64,000 nt of DNA from an uncultured Bdellovibrionales bacterium. Its GTDB lineage: Bacteria > Patescibacteriota > Minisyncoccia > Moranbacterales > UBA1568. The DNA lies in contig CAZUWR010000001.1 in the NCBI GenBank assembly GCA_964624415.1, positions 3,855 to 67,854 on the forward strand, in the 5' to 3' direction. A program made the translations under genes and the position numbers. The notes below the pieces were generated by a model. It was not told the DNA's origin. It did not search any database and saw nothing but the letters and a program-made list of their open reading frames with translations. Shown one piece after another: positions 41,553 to 64,000 of this stretch. Numbering within the stretch: position 1 is the stretch's first letter; the number at the start of each line of letters is the position of its first letter.

Positions 41553-41609
41553 TTTATAGAATCATAGTGTTTATGGTTTGTTGGTGTTTACACACAAGGA
41601 TATTGTTGT

Positions 41610-41680
41610 TGGGGAGGAAGGGATCGAACCTTCGCATGGGGGCTTCAAAGGCCCCTGCCTTACCGCTTGGCTACTCCCCA
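41610..41680 (-). tRNA. tRNA-Gln (anticodon UUG), CCA not encoded
   Basis: The reverse complement reads TGGGGAG-TA-GCCAAGCGGTAAGGCA-G-GGGGC-CTTTGAA-GCCCC-CATGC-GAAGG-TTCGATC-CCTTC-CTCCCCA. It has a 7-bp acceptor stem, a GGTTCGATCC T-arm and the anticodon loop CU-UUG-AA. Confidence 0.9.
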
Positions 41681-41707: not shown

Positions 41708-41734
41708 GATCCTTCGACTACGCTCAGGATGACA
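41708..41734 (+). repeat. GTCATCC...GGATC palindromic element, half copy
   Basis: GATCCTTCGACTACGCTCAGGATGACA is identical to 59188-59214. It is intergenic, between dnaX and tRNA-Gln. Confidence 0.65.
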
Positions 41735-57774: not shown

Positions 57775-57851
57775 ATGTGCGATACAAAGAATACAAAAAC
57801 CGCTTTCCGGCTCAGGAGAGCGGTTTTTAAGTACACTTTTGTCACTATCTC

Positions 57852-57880
57852 TTGACAAAATGAGGAGAGGGTGCTATAGT
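57852..57880 (+). promoter_or_regulatory. sigma-70-type promoter
   Basis: TTGACA, 17-nt spacer, TATAGT. Confidence 0.55.
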
Positions 57881-57939
57881 GAAGGAGCAGTACCCAAAAG
57901 ACAATAATTACATAAAAATCAAAAAACAGGAGAAGTGCT

Positions 57940-58038
57940 ATGAGCACGTTTTTAGAATTAGTATTTCTAGGGGTTATTTTTTTCTTTGTATTGAAGGCGC
58001 ATAAAAATAATACGGCGCCCTTAAATACTGATGAGTAG
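57940..58038 (+). CDS. possible 32-aa single-TM peptide (not in ORF track)
   Basis: AGGAG lies 6 nt upstream. The peptide is MSTFLELVFLGVIFFFVLKAHKNN... It lies downstream of a TTGACA-17-TATAGT promoter. Confidence 0.35.
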   Translation: MSTFLELVFLGVIFFFVLKAHKNNTAPLNTDE

Positions 58039-58047
58039 GAGAACGAA

Positions 58048-58224
58048 ATGACTGTAAAACAAATACTGGCTAAATTTTCAGCAAAAGAAGAGGGTGATAA
58101 TGGGAATTTTGGACTGGAAGATGCTCAAGAGCACAATGTCCAAGAGCATCAAAAAACTCTTCCCGCATTGCTCTTGCGGGATGCTGAAAATTTCAAAGAT
58201 TACCAGTGGCAACACTTTTTTTAA
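58048..58224 (+). CDS. possible 58-aa acidic protein (not in ORF track)
   Basis: AGGAG overlaps the stop of the preceding peptide, so the two are translationally coupled. A GC hairpin lies downstream. Confidence 0.35.
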   Translation: MTVKQILAKFSAKEEGDNGNFGLEDAQEHNVQEHQKTLPALLLRDAENFKDYQWQHFF

Positions 58225-58275
58225 ATAGAGCTAGGCGCCGCGTACTGAACTTCAGTCCGGCGCCAAAAATTTTAT

Positions 58276-58303
58276 TTGACAACTTTCTTAGGAGGAGTAT
58301 ACT
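58276..58303 (+). promoter_or_regulatory. sigma-70-type promoter
   Basis: TTGACA, 16-nt spacer, TATACT. Confidence 0.5.
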
Positions 58304-58309
58304 TGAAAC

Positions 58310-58382
58310 TAATGAAAAGAAAGCTCAACATTTTAGCAGTCTATACGAAGTGATATCATCACCCCTGTGGGTGATTTTTTTT
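58310..58382 (+). ncRNA. candidate ~75-nt small RNA or attenuator
   Basis: The segment lies between the promoter at 58276-58303 and the intrinsic terminator at 58358-58382. The only ORF is 13 codons and has no SD within the predicted transcript. Confidence 0.3.
58358..58382 (+). terminator. intrinsic terminator
   Basis: ATCACCC-CTGT-GGGTGAT followed by T8. Confidence 0.75.
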
Positions 58383-58447
58383 GAGCCGATTTTCGCACTT
58401 GTTGTTTAACAACAGAATAATCAAATATTGAGTAAGGAGAATGTGTT

Positions 58448-58741
58448 ATGAATGATTCTAAAATGAGACAACCATCATTAAACTTTCTGGTAGAATCTCC
58501 AGCTTGTGACCTGATGCCCGATGGTGGTTGGTGTGATGTGCCTTTTCTACGGAGTTTACTCCCTTCAGAGCAAAGATGTAATTGCGCAAAGTACGGAAAG
58601 TGCATTATACGGGAATTGCCAAAAATCGATAATCATTCTATGGTTACGATACTTTTTTATAATCAAGCACAGGGAACCCCTGTTCCTGTTGATAAAATTC
58701 GATCAGCAATCAGTTTATATTGTGAAGCTCACAGTGTTTGA
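58448..58741 (+). CDS. hypothetical Cys-rich small protein
   Basis: 97 aa with 7 Cys. AAGGAG RBS and a bidirectional terminator downstream. Confidence 0.45.
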   Translation: MNDSKMRQPSLNFLVESPACDLMPDGGWCDVPFLRSLLPSEQRCNCAKYGKCIIRELPKIDNHSMVTILFYNQAQGTPVPVDKIRSAISLYCEAHSV

Positions 58742-58751
58742 ATGGCACAAT

Positions 58752-58783
58752 AAAAGGTGATGATATAAAATTCATCACCTTTT
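58752..58783. terminator. bidirectional terminator
   Basis: AAAAGGTGATGA-loop-TCATCACCTTTT between the 97-aa ORF and convergent miaA. Confidence 0.75.
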
Positions 58784-58789
58784 AGCTTT

Positions 58790-59779
58790 TTAGAAGAAGA
58801 TCTCTGTTTCCGAGGCAGCCTCTATCCAGTGGATATCAGCGCCCTGTTTTTCCCATCGGCGCAGCCAAGTGCGCTGTCTTTTGGCATAGTGGACGATGTC
58901 GAAGAAAAGTTTTTCTTTCATTGTCGGTTCGTCGATGTTTCCCTGCAAGAAGCGAGCTATCCATCGGTATTCAAGACCGAAGGCCTCCAGTTTTTCCCAT
59001 GCCGCGCCATGCTCGTGGAGGCGCCGCACTTCTTCGATCATGCCCTGATCGAAGCGTTCGTCCAGGCGTTTTCGTATATTCGCATCCAGGATGTCTTTTG
59101 GAGGATTGAACGCGATAATGAAATAGTTGCTTTGATTGATATATTGAGGTTTGGGATGTGTCATTCCGATCGTAGCGGAGGAATCCGAGATCCTTCGACT
59201 ACGCTCAGGATGACATATCATGGGGTTGCTCTGCAGTGAAGGGACTTTTCCAAGTGATTGTACGATTTCCAGAGCCCGGATAAGCCGGATGGGATTGTTT
59301 CTATCGATAGTTAGGGCTCTTTCCGGATCGATGGCTTGCAGTTTTGCAAAGAGTTCTTGGATAGAAAGGTGCGAAAGTTCTTTGCGCAGTATGAGATCGG
59401 GCAAGACCTCCGGGAAGGATTGGTTATCGATGAGCGCCTGCGCCCAAAAAAGCGTACCTCCGCAGAGGATGGGGAGTTTGCCGCGGCTTCGGATGTCTCG
59501 GATGATTGCTTGGGCATCACATTTGAAGTCCGTGACATTGTACTCCTCGTGCGGCTCGCGAATATCGAGGAGGTGATGCTGAGCGAGCGACTGCTCTTCG
59601 GTAGTCACCTTACCCGTCCCGATATCCATTCCGCAGTACACCTGTCGGCTGTCGGCTGAAATAATCTCGCCATCGTATTTGAGGGCCAGTGAAATTGCCA
59701 AAGAAGACTTGCCCGAGGCTGTCGGCCCGACGATGGCAAGGGTTTGTGATCTGTCGAATTTTCTTGACGTATGATTCAT
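58790..59779 (-). CDS. miaA: tRNA dimethylallyltransferase, carrying an in-frame 57-nt palindromic element
   Basis: P-loop GPTASGKSS, SADSRQVY, GGTLFW and RLIRALEI motifs. The segment CHPERSRRISDSSATIGMT is encoded by the repeat at 59158-59214. Confidence 0.9.
   Translation of the reverse strand: MNHTSRKFDRSQTLAIVGPTASGKSSLAISLALKYDGEIISADSRQVYCGMDIGTGKVTTEEQSLAQHHLLDIREPHEEYNVTDFKCDAQAIIRDIRSRGKLPILCGGTLFWAQALIDNQSFPEVLPDLILRKELSHLSIQELFAKLQAIDPERALTIDRNNPIRLIRALEIVQSLGKVPSLQSNPMICHPERSRRISDSSATIGMTHPKPQYINQSNYFIIAFNPPKDILDANIRKRLDERFDQGMIEEVRRLHEHGAAWEKLEAFGLEYRWIARFLQGNIDEPTMKEKLFFDIVHYAKRQRTWLRRWEKQGADIHWIEAASETEIFF
59158..59214 (+). repeat. 57-nt palindromic element (two inverted GTCATYC...GGAWTC arms) inside miaA
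   Basis: TGTCATTCCGATCGTAGCGGAGGAATC-CGA-GATCCTTCGACTACGCTCAGGATGACA. Its length is divisible by 3 and the reading frame is preserved. Confidence 0.7.
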
Positions 59780-59806
59780 AGTATGTTAGTATAGGCTATT
59801 CAGAAT

Positions 59807-59873
59807 GGAAATGCAAGCGGTTTTCTGAACGTAGAAAAAGTACTTGCTGAACGGGCTGAAGTTTGGCTCTTTA
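59807..59873 (+). promoter_or_regulatory. conserved structured 5' leader, copy 1 of 3
   Basis: GGAAATGCAAGCGGTTTTCTGAACGTAGAAAAAGTACTTGCTGAACGGGCTGAAGTTTGGCTCTTTA. It aligns with 61042-61107 over its whole length and with 60733-60774 over the 5' core. Confidence 0.5.
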
Positions 59874-59896
59874 TCAATTGAATACGAGGTAATGAT

Positions 59897-60280
59897 ATGC
59901 ATACTGTAGCGCAAAAATTGGCATTGCTAACAGCCATCGTAACGGTGATAGGAGGAGTTACAGCAAGTCTGTATTATAGGCAAGTATGGATACTACCTTT
60001 GACTGTGTTTGTCATGAGGGGAACAGAGATGCTTCTTCATATTGAAACAGAGATGACATTGATATATTCTTCGGAGGAACTCGGAAAAAGGGTTGCTCGA
60101 TGGATATTTATCTTGACTGTTCTTGCGGCGGTAATCGGTATTTTTGATACCACTACAGCAGGTATAGTCTGTTTTGTAATGATATTTCTCGTCTCATGTA
60201 AACTCGCTCAAACTCTGGCAATCTACATCAAAAAATATGATCAAATTTACGATTTCCACAAGGTTTTTAGTGAGGAATAA
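59897..60280 (+). CDS. hypothetical 4-TM membrane protein
   Basis: 127 aa, preceded by conserved leader copy 1 and a GAGG RBS. Confidence 0.45.
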   Translation: MHTVAQKLALLTAIVTVIGGVTASLYYRQVWILPLTVFVMRGTEMLLHIETEMTLIYSSEELGKRVARWIFILTVLAAVIGIFDTTTAGIVCFVMIFLVSCKLAQTLAIYIKKYDQIYDFHKVFSEE

Positions 60281-60291
60281 GGAGTAGTGTG

Positions 60292-60591
60292 ATGAAGAGA
60301 AAACAAAAAACGAAAACAAAAAAATGCATATCTATCTCCGAGGAGTATTTTCAGGAACTCCTAAACTTTCTTCAAAAATCGTATAAGAACTTACTCGAAT
60401 ACGCGTTTTATAAAGAGGCTGAGATCTTTTTGGGCGCTATAAAAGCCATGAAGAAAGGGTGTTTCGGAAAGGCAAAAAAACTTTTTCAAAGGTTAACTGC
60501 CGATGTCCAAAGAACTCTTAGCGAAGGGTATCAGGAGGATGATTACATGCGATCAGTACGTAATCTTAAGCCCGCGATAGATGAATTGTGA
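60292..60591 (+). CDS. hypothetical Lys-rich helical protein
   Basis: 99 aa. AAGGAG lies 7 nt upstream of the ATG at 60292. Confidence 0.4.
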   Translation: MKRKQKTKTKKCISISEEYFQELLNFLQKSYKNLLEYAFYKEAEIFLGAIKAMKKGCFGKAKKLFQRLTADVQRTLSEGYQEDDYMRSVRNLKPAIDEL

Positions 60592-60687
60592 TTTGAAAGA
60601 TGAAGATGTAAAGCCGAAACGTCAATGACGGAGTAGGCTTTTATACTACCCGAAAATGCTTCTTTGAGCCGTATTTGTCAGATATGA

Positions 60688-60716
60688 TTGACAAATGTTG
60701 CGGCGTATGCTATACT
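60688..60716 (+). promoter_or_regulatory. sigma-70-type promoter
   Basis: TTGACA, 17-nt spacer, TATACT. Confidence 0.55.
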
Positions 60717-60732
60717 GGGTTTTTCACGTCAG

Positions 60733-60795
60733 CAATGCGGGCAGTTTTCCCAAGACGGAAAAGCGCTTGCGAACTAACCTGAAAACAGGTTTTTT
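60733..60795 (+). promoter_or_regulatory. conserved structured 5' leader, copy 2 of 3, ending in an intrinsic terminator
   Basis: CAATGCGGGCAGTTTTCCCAAGACGGAAAAGCGCTTGCGAAC, followed by AACCTG-AAAA-CAGGTT-TTTTT. Confidence 0.5.
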
Positions 60796-60819
60796 GAAAC
60801 TCTTATGGAGGATGCAGCT

Positions 60820-60972
60820 ATGACGCTGTCAACAATACTGATATGGGTAGTTTTCCTTTTTATTGTCTATTTATTTTATCTGGCGATGAAGGGAACGAAA
60901 CCAGTAGGGTGTTCTGTGTGGGTACAAATGAATAAATATGCCCCGCACAAAACCGATACCACGTTCGATTAA
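60820..60972 (+). CDS. possible 50-aa single-TM peptide (not in ORF track)
   Basis: GGAGGA RBS. The peptide is MTLSTILIWVVFLFIVYLFYLAMKG... It lies downstream of a promoter and leader copy 2. Confidence 0.4.
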   Translation: MTLSTILIWVVFLFIVYLFYLAMKGTKPVGCSVWVQMNKYAPHKTDTTFD

Positions 60973-61041
60973 AATCAGTAGTCGACGACGGAGGTCTCAT
61001 ATTCTTACATCAAGAAGAGGCCTCCGAAAATTATTCACACC

Positions 61042-61107
61042 GGAAATGCGAGCGGTTTTCCGAAACGGAACAAATGCTTGCCGACCGGGCTGAAGTTTGG
61101 CTCTTTA
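61042..61107 (+). promoter_or_regulatory. conserved structured 5' leader, copy 3 of 3
   Basis: GGAAATGCGAGCGGTTTTCCGAAACGGAACAAATGCTTGCCGACCGGGCTGAAGTTTGGCTCTTTA. Confidence 0.5.
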
Positions 61108-61129
61108 AAAATTTTACGAGGATATGATT

Positions 61130-61411
61130 ATGAATGTTGTATTTATGATAGAGTGTATAACACTTTGCGTAATGGGTCATGGACACGGATATGCTATGAA
61201 TTGGCTGGTAATTGAGGATATGACAGAAAATGATTTTAAAGACGAAAATATTCAAGAATGGATTCTATTGAATATTTTCAAAAAAGGAACAATACCAATT
61301 GGCCAGGATATTGTGACCGTGAAAAAATCGATGTTTTCTGATGGGCATGAAGTTGACGGATTCAGTGAATCCAAGAGCTTTAAGGTGAAGTTTTCACTAG
61401 AAAGAGTGTAG
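61130..61411 (+). CDS. hypothetical protein
   Basis: 93 aa (95 aa if translation starts at 61124). It is preceded by leader copy 3, whose RBS-to-ATG spacing matches copy 1. Confidence 0.4.
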   Translation: MNVVFMIECITLCVMGHGHGYAMNWLVIEDMTENDFKDENIQEWILLNIFKKGTIPIGQDIVTVKKSMFSDGHEVDGFSESKSFKVKFSLERV

Positions 61412-61427
61412 TCAGCGATAAAGTCGC

Positions 61428-61459
61428 AAGAGCCTGCTTAAACATAAAAGCAGGCTCTT
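61428..61459. terminator. hairpin between convergent genes
   Basis: AAGAGCCTGCTT-loop-AAGCAGGCTCTT, a 12-bp stem. Confidence 0.55.
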
Positions 61460-61476
61460 AAAAATGTGCAAAAAAC

Positions 61477-64000
61477 CTACTCCACACTGGCAACTCCGGC
61501 AATATCCGCGAGTTGTTTTTTTGTATCTTCGGTCGCTTCGATGGTGTGCGGGGTGTGTATGGTGGCGCCCTGGACGCGGACATAGACGGGCGTCTCGCCC
61601 TTGGGGAGACGGGCGAGGGTAGCGGAGACGGTTTCGAGGAGCTGTTTGCTTACAGCGCTGTCTTGGAGAGTGATGGTGAGGCGGAGATTTTTACCGGATC
61701 CCGCATCAAGTACGGGATGACTTAGATGATGTTGTCCGTTGGTTGTTGGTTGTTGATTGTTGACTGTCTGTGGTTCGTTTTTCGCTCGTGTCAAGAGGAC
61801 TCGCTTGAAAGTCTCGACGGACTGCAAATCGACTTTCTCGGCATCCTCGGCGAGTATTTTTGGGACGCCGTCTTCATTGGAAAGTCTGCCCTGCACGATG
61901 ACGAGTTCGTCTTCTATCCACATACCGCCGGTTTTTTCTACAGCGCGCGGGAAGACGAGCACTTCGACGCGCCCGGTCAGGTCTTCGAGGCTGACGAAAA
62001 ACATTTCTTGCTGGCGTTTGGTGTAGGTTTTGCGCACGGTGCTGATGACACCGCCCACTTTGACGCTGATACCGCTCTCTCGCTTTTCCAAATCATGAAT
62101 CGGAATGGTAATCTGATCGAAGTATTCCTTGAAATCGCTGACCGGATGATCGCTGACATAGAGGCCGAGGAGTTCCTTTTCCCACTTGAGCTTTTGTTTT
62201 TTCTCGATAGGTGGCACGTTTTCGAGGCGTAGCTCGGAGGTTTCGATCGGCATGCTTCCGAAGAGGCTGTCGGTGTGAGTTTCTTTTATCTTCTGCAGAT
62301 TGCGGGAGTGTTTGAGGATTTTGTCGATGCTGGCAAGGAGCTGACTGCGCTCGCCGAAAGCATCGAGGGCGCCCACTTTTGAGAGAGCTTCGAGGGATTT
62401 CTTGTTGAGGTCTTTGGTCTGGACACGCTCGACGAAATCGGCGATGGAGCGGAACTTTCCACCGCGCTTGCGCTCTTTGACGATTTCTTCAGCAGCTACT
62501 TTGCCGACGTTTTTGATGGCATTGAGTCCGAAGCGGATACGCTCTTTTCCTTCGGCATCCGGGACAACGGCAAATTCCTCGAAGCTTTCATTGACATCCG
62601 GTGGCAAGACCTCGATGCCCATCTCGCGGCATTCATTGACCTCGATAGCGATGCGATCCGTCGTGTCCTGGTCGGAGGTGAGGAGGGCGGCCATAAAGGA
62701 TGCCGGGTAATGTGCTTTAAGGTAGGCGGTCTGATAGCCGATGAGCGCATAGCAGGCAGCGTGCGAACGGTTGAAACCATATCCGGCGAACGGTTCGATA
62801 AACGCGAAGACTCCCTCGGCTATATCTTTGCTGATGCCTTGCTCACCGCAACGCGCCACGAATTTGATGCGCTGCTCTTGAATGAGCTCGAGGATTTTTT
62901 TGCCCATCGCTTTGCGAAGCACATCGGCTTCGCCGAGGGTGAAGCCGGCCAGGTCGCGGGCGATTTGCATCACTTGCTCCTGATAGACGGCCACGCCATA
63001 GGTAGTGGCGAGTATCGGTTCAAGTTTCGGGTGCAGGTACTTCACGGTTTTGCGTCCGTGTTTGCCATCGATAAAATCAGGGATCCAGTCCATCGGTCCC
63101 GGACGGTAGAGGGCGACCATAGCGATGATGTCTTCGAGGACGGTCGGCTTAAGCTGGCGCAGGTAGCGCTTCATACCATTGCTTTCCAGCTGGAAGACGC
63201 CGGTCGTGTGGGCCTTTTGGAGTAGCTCATAGGTTTTTTCGTCATCGATAGGGAGGCGATCCATAATGTCGGAAATGGAAGCGGTCTTCGGGTCAAGGCC
63301 GATACGGATGATGAGTTCGTCGAGTTTGCCCAATGCGCGGATGATGCGGATGGTGTTTTGCATGATGGTGAGGTTTTTGAGTCCCAAAAAGTCCATCTTG
63401 AGCAAGCCGATCTTTTCCACGGCGCTGAATTTGGTGGAGGAAGCATACTGTGTCACGGTGCCTTCTCGTGTGCCGGAGATTTTTTGGATGGGGGTGTATT
63501 CGGTGACCGGGTCTTTGGTGATCACCACGCCGCAGGCATGCATCGAGGCATGGCGCGCGAGACCTTCGAGGTTTTTGGCCACGTCGATGAGCTTGCGCGC
63601 TTCCGGATCCGCATCGTAGAGTTTTTTGAAATCCACCGCTTCTTCGAGCGCTTTTTTCATCGTGGAAAACATCGGGATGAGTTTGGCGACTTGATCGCAG
63701 AGCGCATACGAATAGCCCAGTGCACGACCCGTGTCGCGGATAGCCGCGCGCGCCGCCATTGTTCCGAAGGTGATGATCTGTGCGACGTGATCGTGGCCGT
63801 ATTTTTCGCGGACATAGTTGAGCACATCATCGCGACGATCATCGGCGAAGTCCATATCGACATCGGGCATCGAGATACGTTCCGGATTGAGGAATCGCTC
63901 GAAGAGGAGATCGTATTCGATTGGATCCATGTTGGTGATACCGGTGAGGTAGGCGACGAAACTTCCCGCCGCCGAGCCGCGTCCCGGCCCCACCATGATC
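61477..64000 (-). CDS. dnaE: DNA polymerase III alpha subunit (5'-truncated by window edge)
   Basis: GPGRGSAAGS, MPDVDMDF, FNRSHAACYA and HhH/OB regions. The C-terminal extension contains repeat-derived NNQQPTTN and SHPVLDAGSGK. Confidence 0.9.
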   Translation of the reverse strand, partial: IMVGPGRGSAAGSFVAYLTGITNMDPIEYDLLFERFLNPERISMPDVDMDFADDRRDDVLNYVREKYGHDHVAQIITFGTMAARAAIRDTGRALGYSYALCDQVAKLIPMFSTMKKALEEAVDFKKLYDADPEARKLIDVAKNLEGLARHASMHACGVVITKDPVTEYTPIQKISGTREGTVTQYASSTKFSAVEKIGLLKMDFLGLKNLTIMQNTIRIIRALGKLDELIIRIGLDPKTASISDIMDRLPIDDEKTYELLQKAHTTGVFQLESNGMKRYLRQLKPTVLEDIIAMVALYRPGPMDWIPDFIDGKHGRKTVKYLHPKLEPILATTYGVAVYQEQVMQIARDLAGFTLGEADVLRKAMGKKILELIQEQRIKFVARCGEQGISKDIAEGVFAFIEPFAGYGFNRSHAACYALIGYQTAYLKAHYPASFMAALLTSDQDTTDRIAIEVNECREMGIEVLPPDVNESFEEFAVVPDAEGKERIRFGLNAIKNVGKVAAEEIVKERKRGGKFRSIADFVERVQTKDLNKKSLEALSKVGALDAFGERSQLLASIDKILKHSRNLQKIKETHTDSLFGSMPIETSELRLENVPPIEKKQKLKWEKELLGLYVSDHPVSDFKEYFDQITIPIHDLEKRESGISVKVGGVISTVRKTYTKRQQEMFFVSLEDLTGRVEVLVFPRAVEKTGGMWIEDELVIVQGRLSNEDGVPKILAEDAEKVDLQSVETFKRVLLTRAKNEPQTVNNQQPTTNGQHHLSHPVLDAGSGKNLRLTITLQDSAVSKQLLETVSATLARLPKGETPVYVRVQGATIHTPHTIEATEDTKKQLADIAGVASVE
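61695..61720 (+). repeat. GTCATCC...GGATCC hairpin element inside dnaE
   Basis: GGATCCCGCATCAAGTACGGGATGAC has an ATCCCG/CGGGAT stem. It encodes SHPVLDAGS on the minus strand. Confidence 0.55.
61738..61767 (+). repeat. A/C-rich element in dnaE shared with dnaX
   Basis: On the coding strand, ACAGTCAACAATCAACAACCAACAACCAAC compares with ACAGTCAACAATTAACAACAAACAACAAAC in dnaX. Confidence 0.6.

Follow-up and report, generated by a model that had tools for sequence, protein, structure and literature searches.

A structured 5' leader RNA repeated before unrelated small genes between dnaE and miaA in Moranbacteria

In the pbuE (ydhL) adenine riboswitch, the 3' strand of the outer helix P1 is shared with the 5' arm of a terminator, and formation of P1 means read-through; ON switches of this type have covarying helices and conserved unpaired junction nucleotides. 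Stabilising stem-loops at the 5' end are known from the E. coli ompA 5' untranslated region and the B. subtilis aprE leader, and such stabilisers are not known to require conservation of the loop sequence or to recur as modules before many genes. Integron arrays hold small, unrelated, mostly ORFan genes at one site, their cassette content varies between close relatives, and their attC sites form imperfect hairpins in which a conserved outer stem is followed by an unpaired spacer, an inner stem and a variable tip. In the LoaP-controlled operons (dfn/mln), an intrinsic terminator stands between a promoter-proximal leader hairpin and the first gene (PMC12691694). These operons are controlled processively via LoaP, a dedicated NusG paralogue, and the HK022 put RNA acts on RNA polymerase directly. 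Here, we analysed an untranslated, folded RNA of about 100 nucleotides (nt) that stands at the start of three small genes on the plus strand of a Moranbacteria contig (CAZUWR010000001.1; "the window" denotes the whole analysed stretch of 64,000 nt). The three copies lie within an island of 1.7 kb that is bordered by miaA and the 3' end of dnaE. By its MiaA homologues, the organism is assigned to Moranbacteria, a group of Patescibacteria. The leader resembles pbuE in the predicted overlap of P1 with a terminator and in its covarying helices and conserved unpaired nucleotides. Like the ompA and aprE leaders, it is predicted to have a stable helix within 0-2 nt of the predicted 5' end and upstream of an accessible ribosome-binding site. 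A conserved promoter-proximal hairpin common to several transcription units is shared with dfn/mln and put, and a predicted intrinsic terminator between this hairpin and the first gene with the LoaP operons. The gene content of the island and the general plan of the hairpin recall integron arrays and attC sites, respectively.

The three segments are a real repeat and form a structured sense-strand 5' leader upstream of unrelated small open reading frames (ORFs). A first-pass annotation of the window had proposed a core, an outer GCRRGC/GCTTGC helix and an inner hairpin common to three segments, and repeat and pattern searches of the 64 kb agreed with it. The core AATGCRRGCRGTTTTC occurs exactly three times, at 59810, 60734 and 61045 on the plus strand, compared to 0.42 matches in shuffled sequences even with two mismatches allowed, and each copy folds as described. 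The additional 3' block attributed to copies 1 and 3 was recovered as the 22-mer CGGGCTGAAGTTTGGCTCTTTA, which is found only at 59852 and 61086 (0 expected by chance). The segment limits required correction at their starts, as the repeat finder placed the opening of the conserved block about 10 nt further upstream, at TATTCA (59797, 60721 and 61032). This upstream block pairs with an invariant CTGAA to form helix P1, which the first-pass annotation had overlooked, although its other helices stood. The search of the window with a covariance model (CM), run with filters off, returned only the three copies at 68-81 bits, and the next match scored 13 bits. A weak match at 57783-57862 was read as the ordinary terminator and promoter after gatB and was ruled out as a leader copy. 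Similarity between the copies ends at the start codons, so that a plain segmental duplication extending into the genes is not seen, and no similarity was detected among the three downstream ORFs, as had been claimed. Within the window, variation in the helices is one-sided only (A-U versus G-U), and double compensatory changes were found only in related genomes. The latter had been proposed as the place to look for further copies and covariation, and both are present there.

Related loci were collected as the contigs encoding the closest MiaA homologues (74-58% identity), and one locus (L018) was added from a metagenome pattern scan. The order dnaE, variable small ORFs, miaA is kept in the relatives, and the small ORFs differ in every genome. 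Including the window, 15 leader copies were found in nine Moranbacteria genomes or strains (L011, L012, L016 with three copies, L018, L020, L023 with two and a remnant, L024 with two, and L106). Every copy is located between dnaE and miaA, on the strand of the ORFs. The CM, built from 13 copies, scored 58-83 bits on the sense strand of all copies and 16-25 bits on the antisense strand. The leader is strongly diverged in L013 and absent from L107 and L108, whose MiaA proteins are 58-59% identical. The view that the motif lies outside the known classes held: Rfam 15 at gathering thresholds gave a single tRNA (41609-41680) in the whole window, and a permissive scan of 59700-61500 (E up to 10) gave sub-threshold snoRNA and sRNA noise, none of it on the leaders. 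The strict core pattern of the first-pass annotation gave eight scattered, chance-like matches in 185,579 species genomes (596 Gb), this pattern being too strict for the relatives, and one chance match in viral contigs. As a negative control, 78 viral seed matches to TTCAGNNNGGAAATGCAAG (687 kb of unrelated loci) all failed the CM. The broader-pattern metagenome scan gave one true locus (L018) and one chance match (L019). No description of the leader motif was found in the literature.

The leader RNA folds into a rod of about 62 nt composed of P1, an asymmetric internal loop with AAAU opposite NNA, P2 and a variable hairpin, P3. P1 (UUCAG.../...CUGAA) reaches up to 10 bp and joins alignment columns 3-12 with 55-64 (UUCAGNNNGG with CCNNNCUGAA), and in P2 the sequence GCRRGYR pairs with YRCYUGC. 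The pairing was tested on a MAFFT alignment made without structure fitting, with the 3' partners slid by 1-3 columns as controls. Paired cells amounted to 86.4%, in comparison to 29-55% in the slid controls, and double (compensatory) changes were present in 9 of the 22 pairs. The covariation score was matched by one of 500 column shuffles, a control that ignores the shared descent of the copies, so that the covariation statistics are suggestive and not final. RNAalifold independently arrived at these helices and showed compensation in 9 of 20 pairs, and the rod was the minimum-energy structure in all 13 full copies (z -2.3 to -7.8). Compensation was observed in L016a (GCAGGUG/CACCUGU), in L018 and L020 (GCAAGU/AUUUGC) and in P1 of L016a and L016c (UUAG/CUGG), while P3 alternates among UUUUCC/GGAAAA, UCUC/GAGA and GUGCC/GGCGU. 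As G:U pairs far outnumber A:C (33 versus 9), the folded strand is the sense strand. The AAAU/NNA loop is kept in 14 copies, and L106 has AAAGG instead of AAAUG. In L013, two diverged leaders (L013a and L013b) keep the 5'-terminal pairing and have lost the conserved sequence. L013b was missed by the CM, yet it retains the rod with a rewritten P1 (UCAAAUUG/UAAUUUGA, z -2.9) in spite of the loss of the loop sequence, which argues against a conserved ligand pocket. We additionally noted that P3 in all copies pairs a pyrimidine-rich 5' arm (UUUYCC, UCUC) with a 3' arm that is purine-rich and Shine-Dalgarno-like (GGAAAA, GGAAG, GAGAG), and that UUCCCAU of L024b is complementary to its own ribosome-binding site, AUGGGGA. 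The two arms could represent an anti-Shine-Dalgarno and a Shine-Dalgarno mimic, or mere shared ancestry.

The position of the rod relative to the promoter is nearly fixed. In 14 of the 15 copies, TTGACN, a 17-nt spacer and the -10 box are followed by exactly 6 nt to P1, and given this distance the transcript is predicted to start at P1 or 1 nt before it. The promoter assigned earlier to copy 2 is among them (Table 1). The exception is copy 3, the rod of which directly follows the hairpin behind ORF2 and has no promoter. In 11 of the 13 complete copies, a hairpin that precedes a U-rich tract uses the 3' strand of P1 (GGSCUGAA) as its 5' arm, so that P1 and the leader terminator are predicted to be mutually exclusive. 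The hairpin reads GGGCUGA-AGU-UUGGCUC-UUUA in window copies 1 and 3 and in L012, AACCUG-AAAA-CAGGUU-UUUU in copy 2 and GACCUGA-AAUC-UCAGGUU-UUUU in L024a. The terminator sequence reported for copy 2 is present, with a tail written as four T rather than five, and the proposed layout of a folded domain followed by a terminator proved more general than that single copy. The rod is calculated to be stabler than the alternative terminator by about 4 kcal/mol or more in most copies, and so would need no ligand to form. In copy 3, the domain is calculated at -24.5 kcal/mol; P1 accounts for about -10 of this, whereas the hairpin has about -6. When P1 and the terminator compete in copy 2, the minimum-energy fold takes the terminator. 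Strong terminators are present in copy 2, L024a and L016c, and copies with strong terminators have a weak P1.

Leader identity between genomes is 60-91%, compared to 67-71% for the flanking miaA and 76-81% for the flanking dnaE. Neutral intergenic sequence would not be expected to be conserved at a level so close to that of coding DNA. Conservation extends to the promoter spacer and to the terminator that closes the cassettes. The 26-nt core of this terminator, GCCGAAACGTCRATGACGGAGTAGGC, is identical in the window, L012 (5124-5149, minus strand), L024 (4761-4786, minus) and L106 (1622-1647, minus), although the flanking coding DNA of these genomes is 67-81% identical. The general pattern is AAAGCCGAAACGTC(A/G)ATGACGGAGTAGGCTTTT with an A(A/T)A(A/C)TA...CGAAAA tail, and in the variants found in L016, L018 and L020 the inner stems are compensated. 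Between the leader and the identical core, the four genomes hold unrelated cargo of 127+99, 162, 129 and 154 amino acids (aa). Between L016a and L016c, 41 nt on the 5' side are identical, and the 3' strand of P1 is shared as well, while the two distal hairpins are wholly different and both perfect. The part shared between L016 9981-9880 and 8786-8700 (minus strand) comprises the promoter spacer, the -10 box, the 5' strand of P1 and GAAATGCAGG; the flanks look homogenised and the interior swapped. Copy 3 is 80% identical to copy 1 and 86-91% identical to the L012 leader.

Across all copies, the cargo falls into at least six unrelated ORFan families without Pfam, PADLOC or PHROG assignment, and the cargo ORFs of the window likewise belong to no family in Pfam, PADLOC or PHROGs. 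There is no common metabolic theme, and no transporter or enzyme is included. A search of 5.8 billion proteins with the 127-aa protein of cassette 1 returned only itself, and the homology search with family A cargo returned essentially the query and its closest relatives. The commonest cargo family, consisting of a transmembrane (TM) segment and a domain of about 100 aa, has four cluster representatives among 1.84 billion. The 50-aa peptide of cassette 2 has a homologue (48% identity) downstream of the diverged leader L013b. The 93-aa protein of cassette 3 had been called soluble, which is doubtful in view of its hydrophobic N-terminus. Judged from these sequences, the cargo appears to consist of lineage-restricted small membrane or secreted proteins. 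In L011 (37-813, minus strand), the leader is followed by a family A ORF truncated after 14 codons and then by a 258-aa ORF with a weak, sub-threshold match (E=0.02) to PF17288, the terminase large subunit nuclease domain. This ORF may represent the remains of a phage at this hot spot. The window island itself had no match in phage and plasmid collections.

Table 1. Coordinates of the leader copies, their parts and the surrounding features in the window (P1-P3, helices of the leader; RBS, ribosome-binding site)
Feature	Position	Strand	Remarks
miaA (tRNA dimethylallyltransferase)	58790-59779	-	left island border; homologues with PF01715/PF01745, Moranbacteria
Promoter, cassette 1	59764-59792	+	TTGACG-17-TAGTAT; -10 box ends 6 nt before P1
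Leader copy 1	59797-59896	+	CM score 72.7 bits; z -2.4
Copy 1 P1	59799-59808 with 59851-59860		
Copy 1 internal loop	59809-59812		AAAU
Copy 1 P2	59813-59819 with 59841-59847		
Copy 1 P3	59821-59827 with 59832-59838		
Copy 1 terminator-like hairpin and U tail	59853-59873		
Copy 1 RBS	59886-59889		GAGG
Cargo, cassette 1	59897-60591	+	two ORFs
Cassette 1, first ORF	59897-60280	+	127 aa, 4 predicted TM segments
Cassette 1, second ORF	60292-60591	+	99 aa, basic
Cassette terminator	60610-60660	+	AAAGCCGAAACGTCAATGACGGAGTAGGCTTTT and tail ATACTACCCGAAAAT; full 33-nt form 60610-60642
Promoter, cassette 2	60688-60716	+	TTGACA-17-TATACT, 11/12 consensus matches; TG before -10 box
Leader copy 2	60721-60819	+	CM score 67.7 bits
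Copy 2 P1	60723-60732 with 60774-60783		weak
Copy 2 P2	60737-60743 with 60764-60770		
Copy 2 P3	60745-60750 with 60757-60762		
Copy 2 terminator	60776-60781 with 60786-60791		strong; T run to 60795
Copy 2 RBS	60807-60812		GGAGGA
Cargo, cassette 2 (ORF2)	60820-60972	+	50-aa peptide, single TM segment
Hairpin after ORF2	60989-61026	+	CGGAGG...CCTCCG; U tract absent
Leader copy 3	61032-61129	+	CM score 80.8 bits; z -4.1; own promoter absent
Copy 3 P1	61034-61043 with 61085-61094		
Copy 3 P2	61048-61054 with 61075-61081		
Copy 3 P3	61058-61062 with 61066-61070		
Copy 3 terminator-like hairpin and U tail	61087-61107		
Copy 3 RBS	61117-61121		GAGGA
Cargo, cassette 3 (ORF3)	61130-61411	+	93-aa protein, hydrophobic N-terminus
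Inverted repeat	61428-61459		perfect, 12 bp; between ORF3 and convergent dnaE
dnaE, 3' part (DNA polymerase III alpha)	61477-63996	-	right island border; syntenic genes with PF07733 and related domains

At the left border, the divergent cassette 1 promoter overlaps miaA: its -35/spacer region contains the miaA start codon, and its -35 box falls within miaA codons 3-5. Within 59779-59816, two divergent -10 boxes overlap (TAGTAT at 59787-59792 on the plus strand and TATACT at 59793-59788 on the minus strand). The minus-strand TATACT stands 8 nt before the miaA ATG, and TTGCAT (the reverse complement of ATGCAA) is placed 17 nt upstream of it. The miaA mRNA is probably leaderless, and the overlap of the -10 boxes suggests competition between the miaA and cassette 1 promoters. 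Within miaA, a palindromic repeat (59155-59222, minus strand) composed of GTCATCCTGAGCGTAGTCGAAGGATC and a degenerate inverted partner is inserted in frame. It adds about 27 aa (MICHPERSRRISDSSATIGMTHPKP) that are absent from closer MiaA homologues, and P0003 carries this insert and one more. The palindromic repeat recurs in an identical copy at 41708-41733, and L012 and L016 have similar elements behind dnaE; the insert resembles the in-frame palindromic elements of Rickettsia. Between gatB and miaA (57800-58790, plus strand), there is a second stretch of family-less small ORFs (32-97 aa) without a leader copy but with its own TTGACA-type promoter at about 57852, and its counterpart in the relatives also holds variable small ORFs. 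At the right border, the inverted repeat between ORF3 and dnaE is probably a bidirectional terminator. The hairpin that follows ORF2 is also found beside dnaE in L013, where cassette 3 is absent.

The copies are best explained, with about even confidence on our part, as a lineage-specific, cis-acting 5' leader in a promoter-leader-terminator cassette, in which P1 would both antiterminate and cap the 5' end. Starting from the secondary structure, strand, position and alternative hairpin obtained by sequence analysis, we infer the cis action and the following steps. The unit would consist, in this order, of the promoter, the leader, the terminator-like hairpin, an A/U-rich spacer and the ribosome-binding site, and would drive genes for small, fast-evolving membrane or secreted proteins in the variable dnaE-miaA island of one Moranbacteria clade. 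The RNA is predicted to fold into the rod from the first or second transcribed nucleotide, and compensatory substitutions maintain this fold on the sense strand. With P1 closed, the rod would antiterminate and shield the mRNA 5' end from 5'-dependent decay, and most copies would be ON by default. A weak P1 combined with a strong terminator, as in window copy 2 and L024a, would move the default toward termination. The conserved internal loop and its closing base pairs would be the most likely binding site of a trans-acting factor setting this balance, and we think that a protein is more likely than a metabolite in this role. The conserved leaders and terminators around unrelated cargo would probably serve as homology arms for cassette replacement.

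Several observations weigh against this explanation. The start site, termination and read-through are all derived from sequence, and the analysis yielded no candidate for the binding factor. As copy 3 has no promoter, its rod would lie within a longer transcript and not at the 5' end. The full copies L011 and L016b, as well as L013b, have no terminator-like hairpin, and in most copies it is of low stability, at -5 to -7 kcal/mol, with a register that is not kept strictly. The copies also share recent ancestry: those within a genome are often more alike than those between genomes, and the 41-nt identity of L016a and L016c inflates the apparent conservation. The overlapping divergent miaA promoter could explain part of the conservation in the miaA-proximal copies; as the overlap is limited to these, the constraint cannot explain the distal ones.

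The absence of the hairpin from L011, L016b and L013b would fit a purely structural 5' stabiliser or RNase processing site without switching, in which copy 3 would be an RNase III-type cleavage site releasing a hairpin-capped mRNA and the U-tailed hairpin would be incidental. The constant 6-nt distance in 14 of the 15 copies, which leaves at most 1-2 unpaired 5' nt, the dominance of the rod fold and the retention of 5'-terminal pairing without conserved sequence in L013a and L013b are also in line with it. Such a stabiliser leaves unexplained, however, the strong conservation of GAAAUGC, AC and CUGAA, the overlap of the U-tailed hairpin with P1 in 11 of 13 copies and the occurrence of the weakest P1 where the hairpin is strongest. 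The ompA and aprE leaders are not known to overlap a terminator-like hairpin. We consider this alternative somewhat unlikely, and prefer the antiterminating and end-capping leader.

The first-pass annotation had gone further and read the arrangement as a riboswitch, and this part of it was unsupported, unlike the structured sense-strand leader of unrelated small ORFs. An ON-type switch comparable to pbuE would bind a small-molecule or ionic ligand in the AAAU/NNA loop, stabilise P1-P2 and block the leader terminator. Conserved unpaired nucleotides do lie between covarying helices, a competing expression platform exclusive with P1 is present in 11 of 13 copies, and copy 2 and L024a, near or on the terminator side of the balance, could be tipped by a ligand. 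Rod-shaped hairpin aptamers are known from the literature (the NMT1/xanthine and folE/THF-II motifs), and no known Rfam family matches the leader. On the other hand, the leader is confined to one locus in one small clade and is missing from relatives with MiaA 58-59% identical; the strict pattern gave chance-like matches in the 596 Gb of species representatives, and the broader metagenome pattern added one related locus. The ORFan cargo shows no recurrent association with a pathway or transport, P1 is stable without ligand in most copies, L013b folds without the loop sequence and L106 has AAAGG for AAAUG. In contrast to pbuE, the leader is a plain rod-shaped hairpin with no three-way junction, known aptamer fold or coherent gene association, and the promoter and cassette terminator are conserved together with it. 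We regard a riboswitch as possible but unlikely.

The joint conservation of promoter, leader and terminator around unrelated cargo would also be compatible with a DNA-level repeat without RNA function, in which recent duplicates or gene-conversion tracts serve as cassette-exchange scaffolds or as folded, attC-like sites. The 41 identical nt of L016a and L016c, the resemblance of copy 3 to a leader-only duplication of a copy 1- or L012-type leader, and the superficially attC-like succession of stem, unpaired spacer, stem and variable tip are consistent with such a repeat. Against it, compensatory double changes preserve the helices, and the excess of G:U over A:C (33 versus 9) on the transcribed strand fits RNA. 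The hairpin is located 5' of the ORF within the transcript, the attC cores RYYYAAC/GTTRRRY are absent (the P1 strands are TTCAG/CTGAA), and all cassettes but one have their own sigma-70-type promoter, unlike those of integrons, in addition to a terminator. No integrase or recombinase was present among the called genes within about 5-10 kb in the eight neighbourhoods with gene tables, where the called neighbours were RNase HII, DnaE, MiaA, GatB, thymidylate-metabolism genes, L1/L11 and NusG. We judge a purely DNA-level function improbable.

The predicted dependence of copy 3 on read-through from cassette 2, together with the dfn-like order of a promoter-proximal conserved hairpin and an intrinsic terminator before the first gene, would fit a recruitment site for processive antitermination of the LoaP/dfn or HK022 put type, the rod modifying RNA polymerase past both the leader and the inter-cassette terminators. 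No specialised NusG paralogue is evident beside the island, though, and only the housekeeping secE-nusG-rplK genes are found, about 8 kb away. The LoaP hairpin is a short one of the UNCG type, unlike the rod, the leader is unrelated to the LoaP and put elements in sequence and shape, and it overlaps the terminator itself, so that local antitermination is already accounted for. This makes a processive mechanism quite improbable. It is very improbable that the AUG in GAAAUGC starts a short peptide (MQAVF.../MRAVF...) controlling the terminator by upstream-ORF attenuation: the AUG occurs in 14 of 15 copies and is in frame with the UGA of CUGAA in copies 2 and 3, L012 and L016c (13-15 codons), but a suitably spaced Shine-Dalgarno sequence is lacking, the length (5-25 codons) and stop position vary, L106 has no AUG, and substitutions track base-pairing, not codon third positions. 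A CsrA-type GGA site (lacking in copy 2), a K-turn or sarcin-ricin loop (sequences that do not fit), mimicry of the MiaA substrate (purely speculative) and a role of the minus strand as miaA promoter (applicable to miaA-proximal copies only) were set aside. A type I toxin-antitoxin system was likewise rejected, as only ORF2 (50 aa, one TM segment) is toxin-like and the other cargo proteins have 93-179 aa; no antisense promoter besides that of miaA was found, and the antisense strand scores poorly in the CM.

A more speculative extension, which we hold to be unlikely, would make the leader and terminator a recombinase-free platform by which a naturally competent, ultrasmall bacterium captures genes. 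Strains would exchange unrelated host-interaction genes through homologous recombination in the non-coding flanks, and every captured gene would be placed under one shared RNA switch, which would sense a ligand specific to the candidate phyla radiation (CPR) or a host-contact factor at the AAAU/NNA loop.

The antiterminating, end-capping leader remains the preferred explanation, and the motif appears to be a genuine, undescribed and narrowly distributed leader, supported by covariation, within the broad class of cis-regulatory leader RNAs. Few structured regulatory RNAs have been described in Patescibacteria (the CPR), where gene regulation is nearly uncharted. The leader would be a common control point for several unrelated, fast-evolving small membrane or secreted proteins and, if responsive to a signal, would point to a co-regulated group of candidate genes for host interaction in an episymbiotic lineage. 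The genetic tools now being built for Patescibacteria could also obtain from it a native module of expression and regulation. The modular architecture of the cassettes is the more unusual aspect than the leader itself, and the conserved flanks around unrelated cargo suggest a simple way in which reduced genomes may sample new genes.

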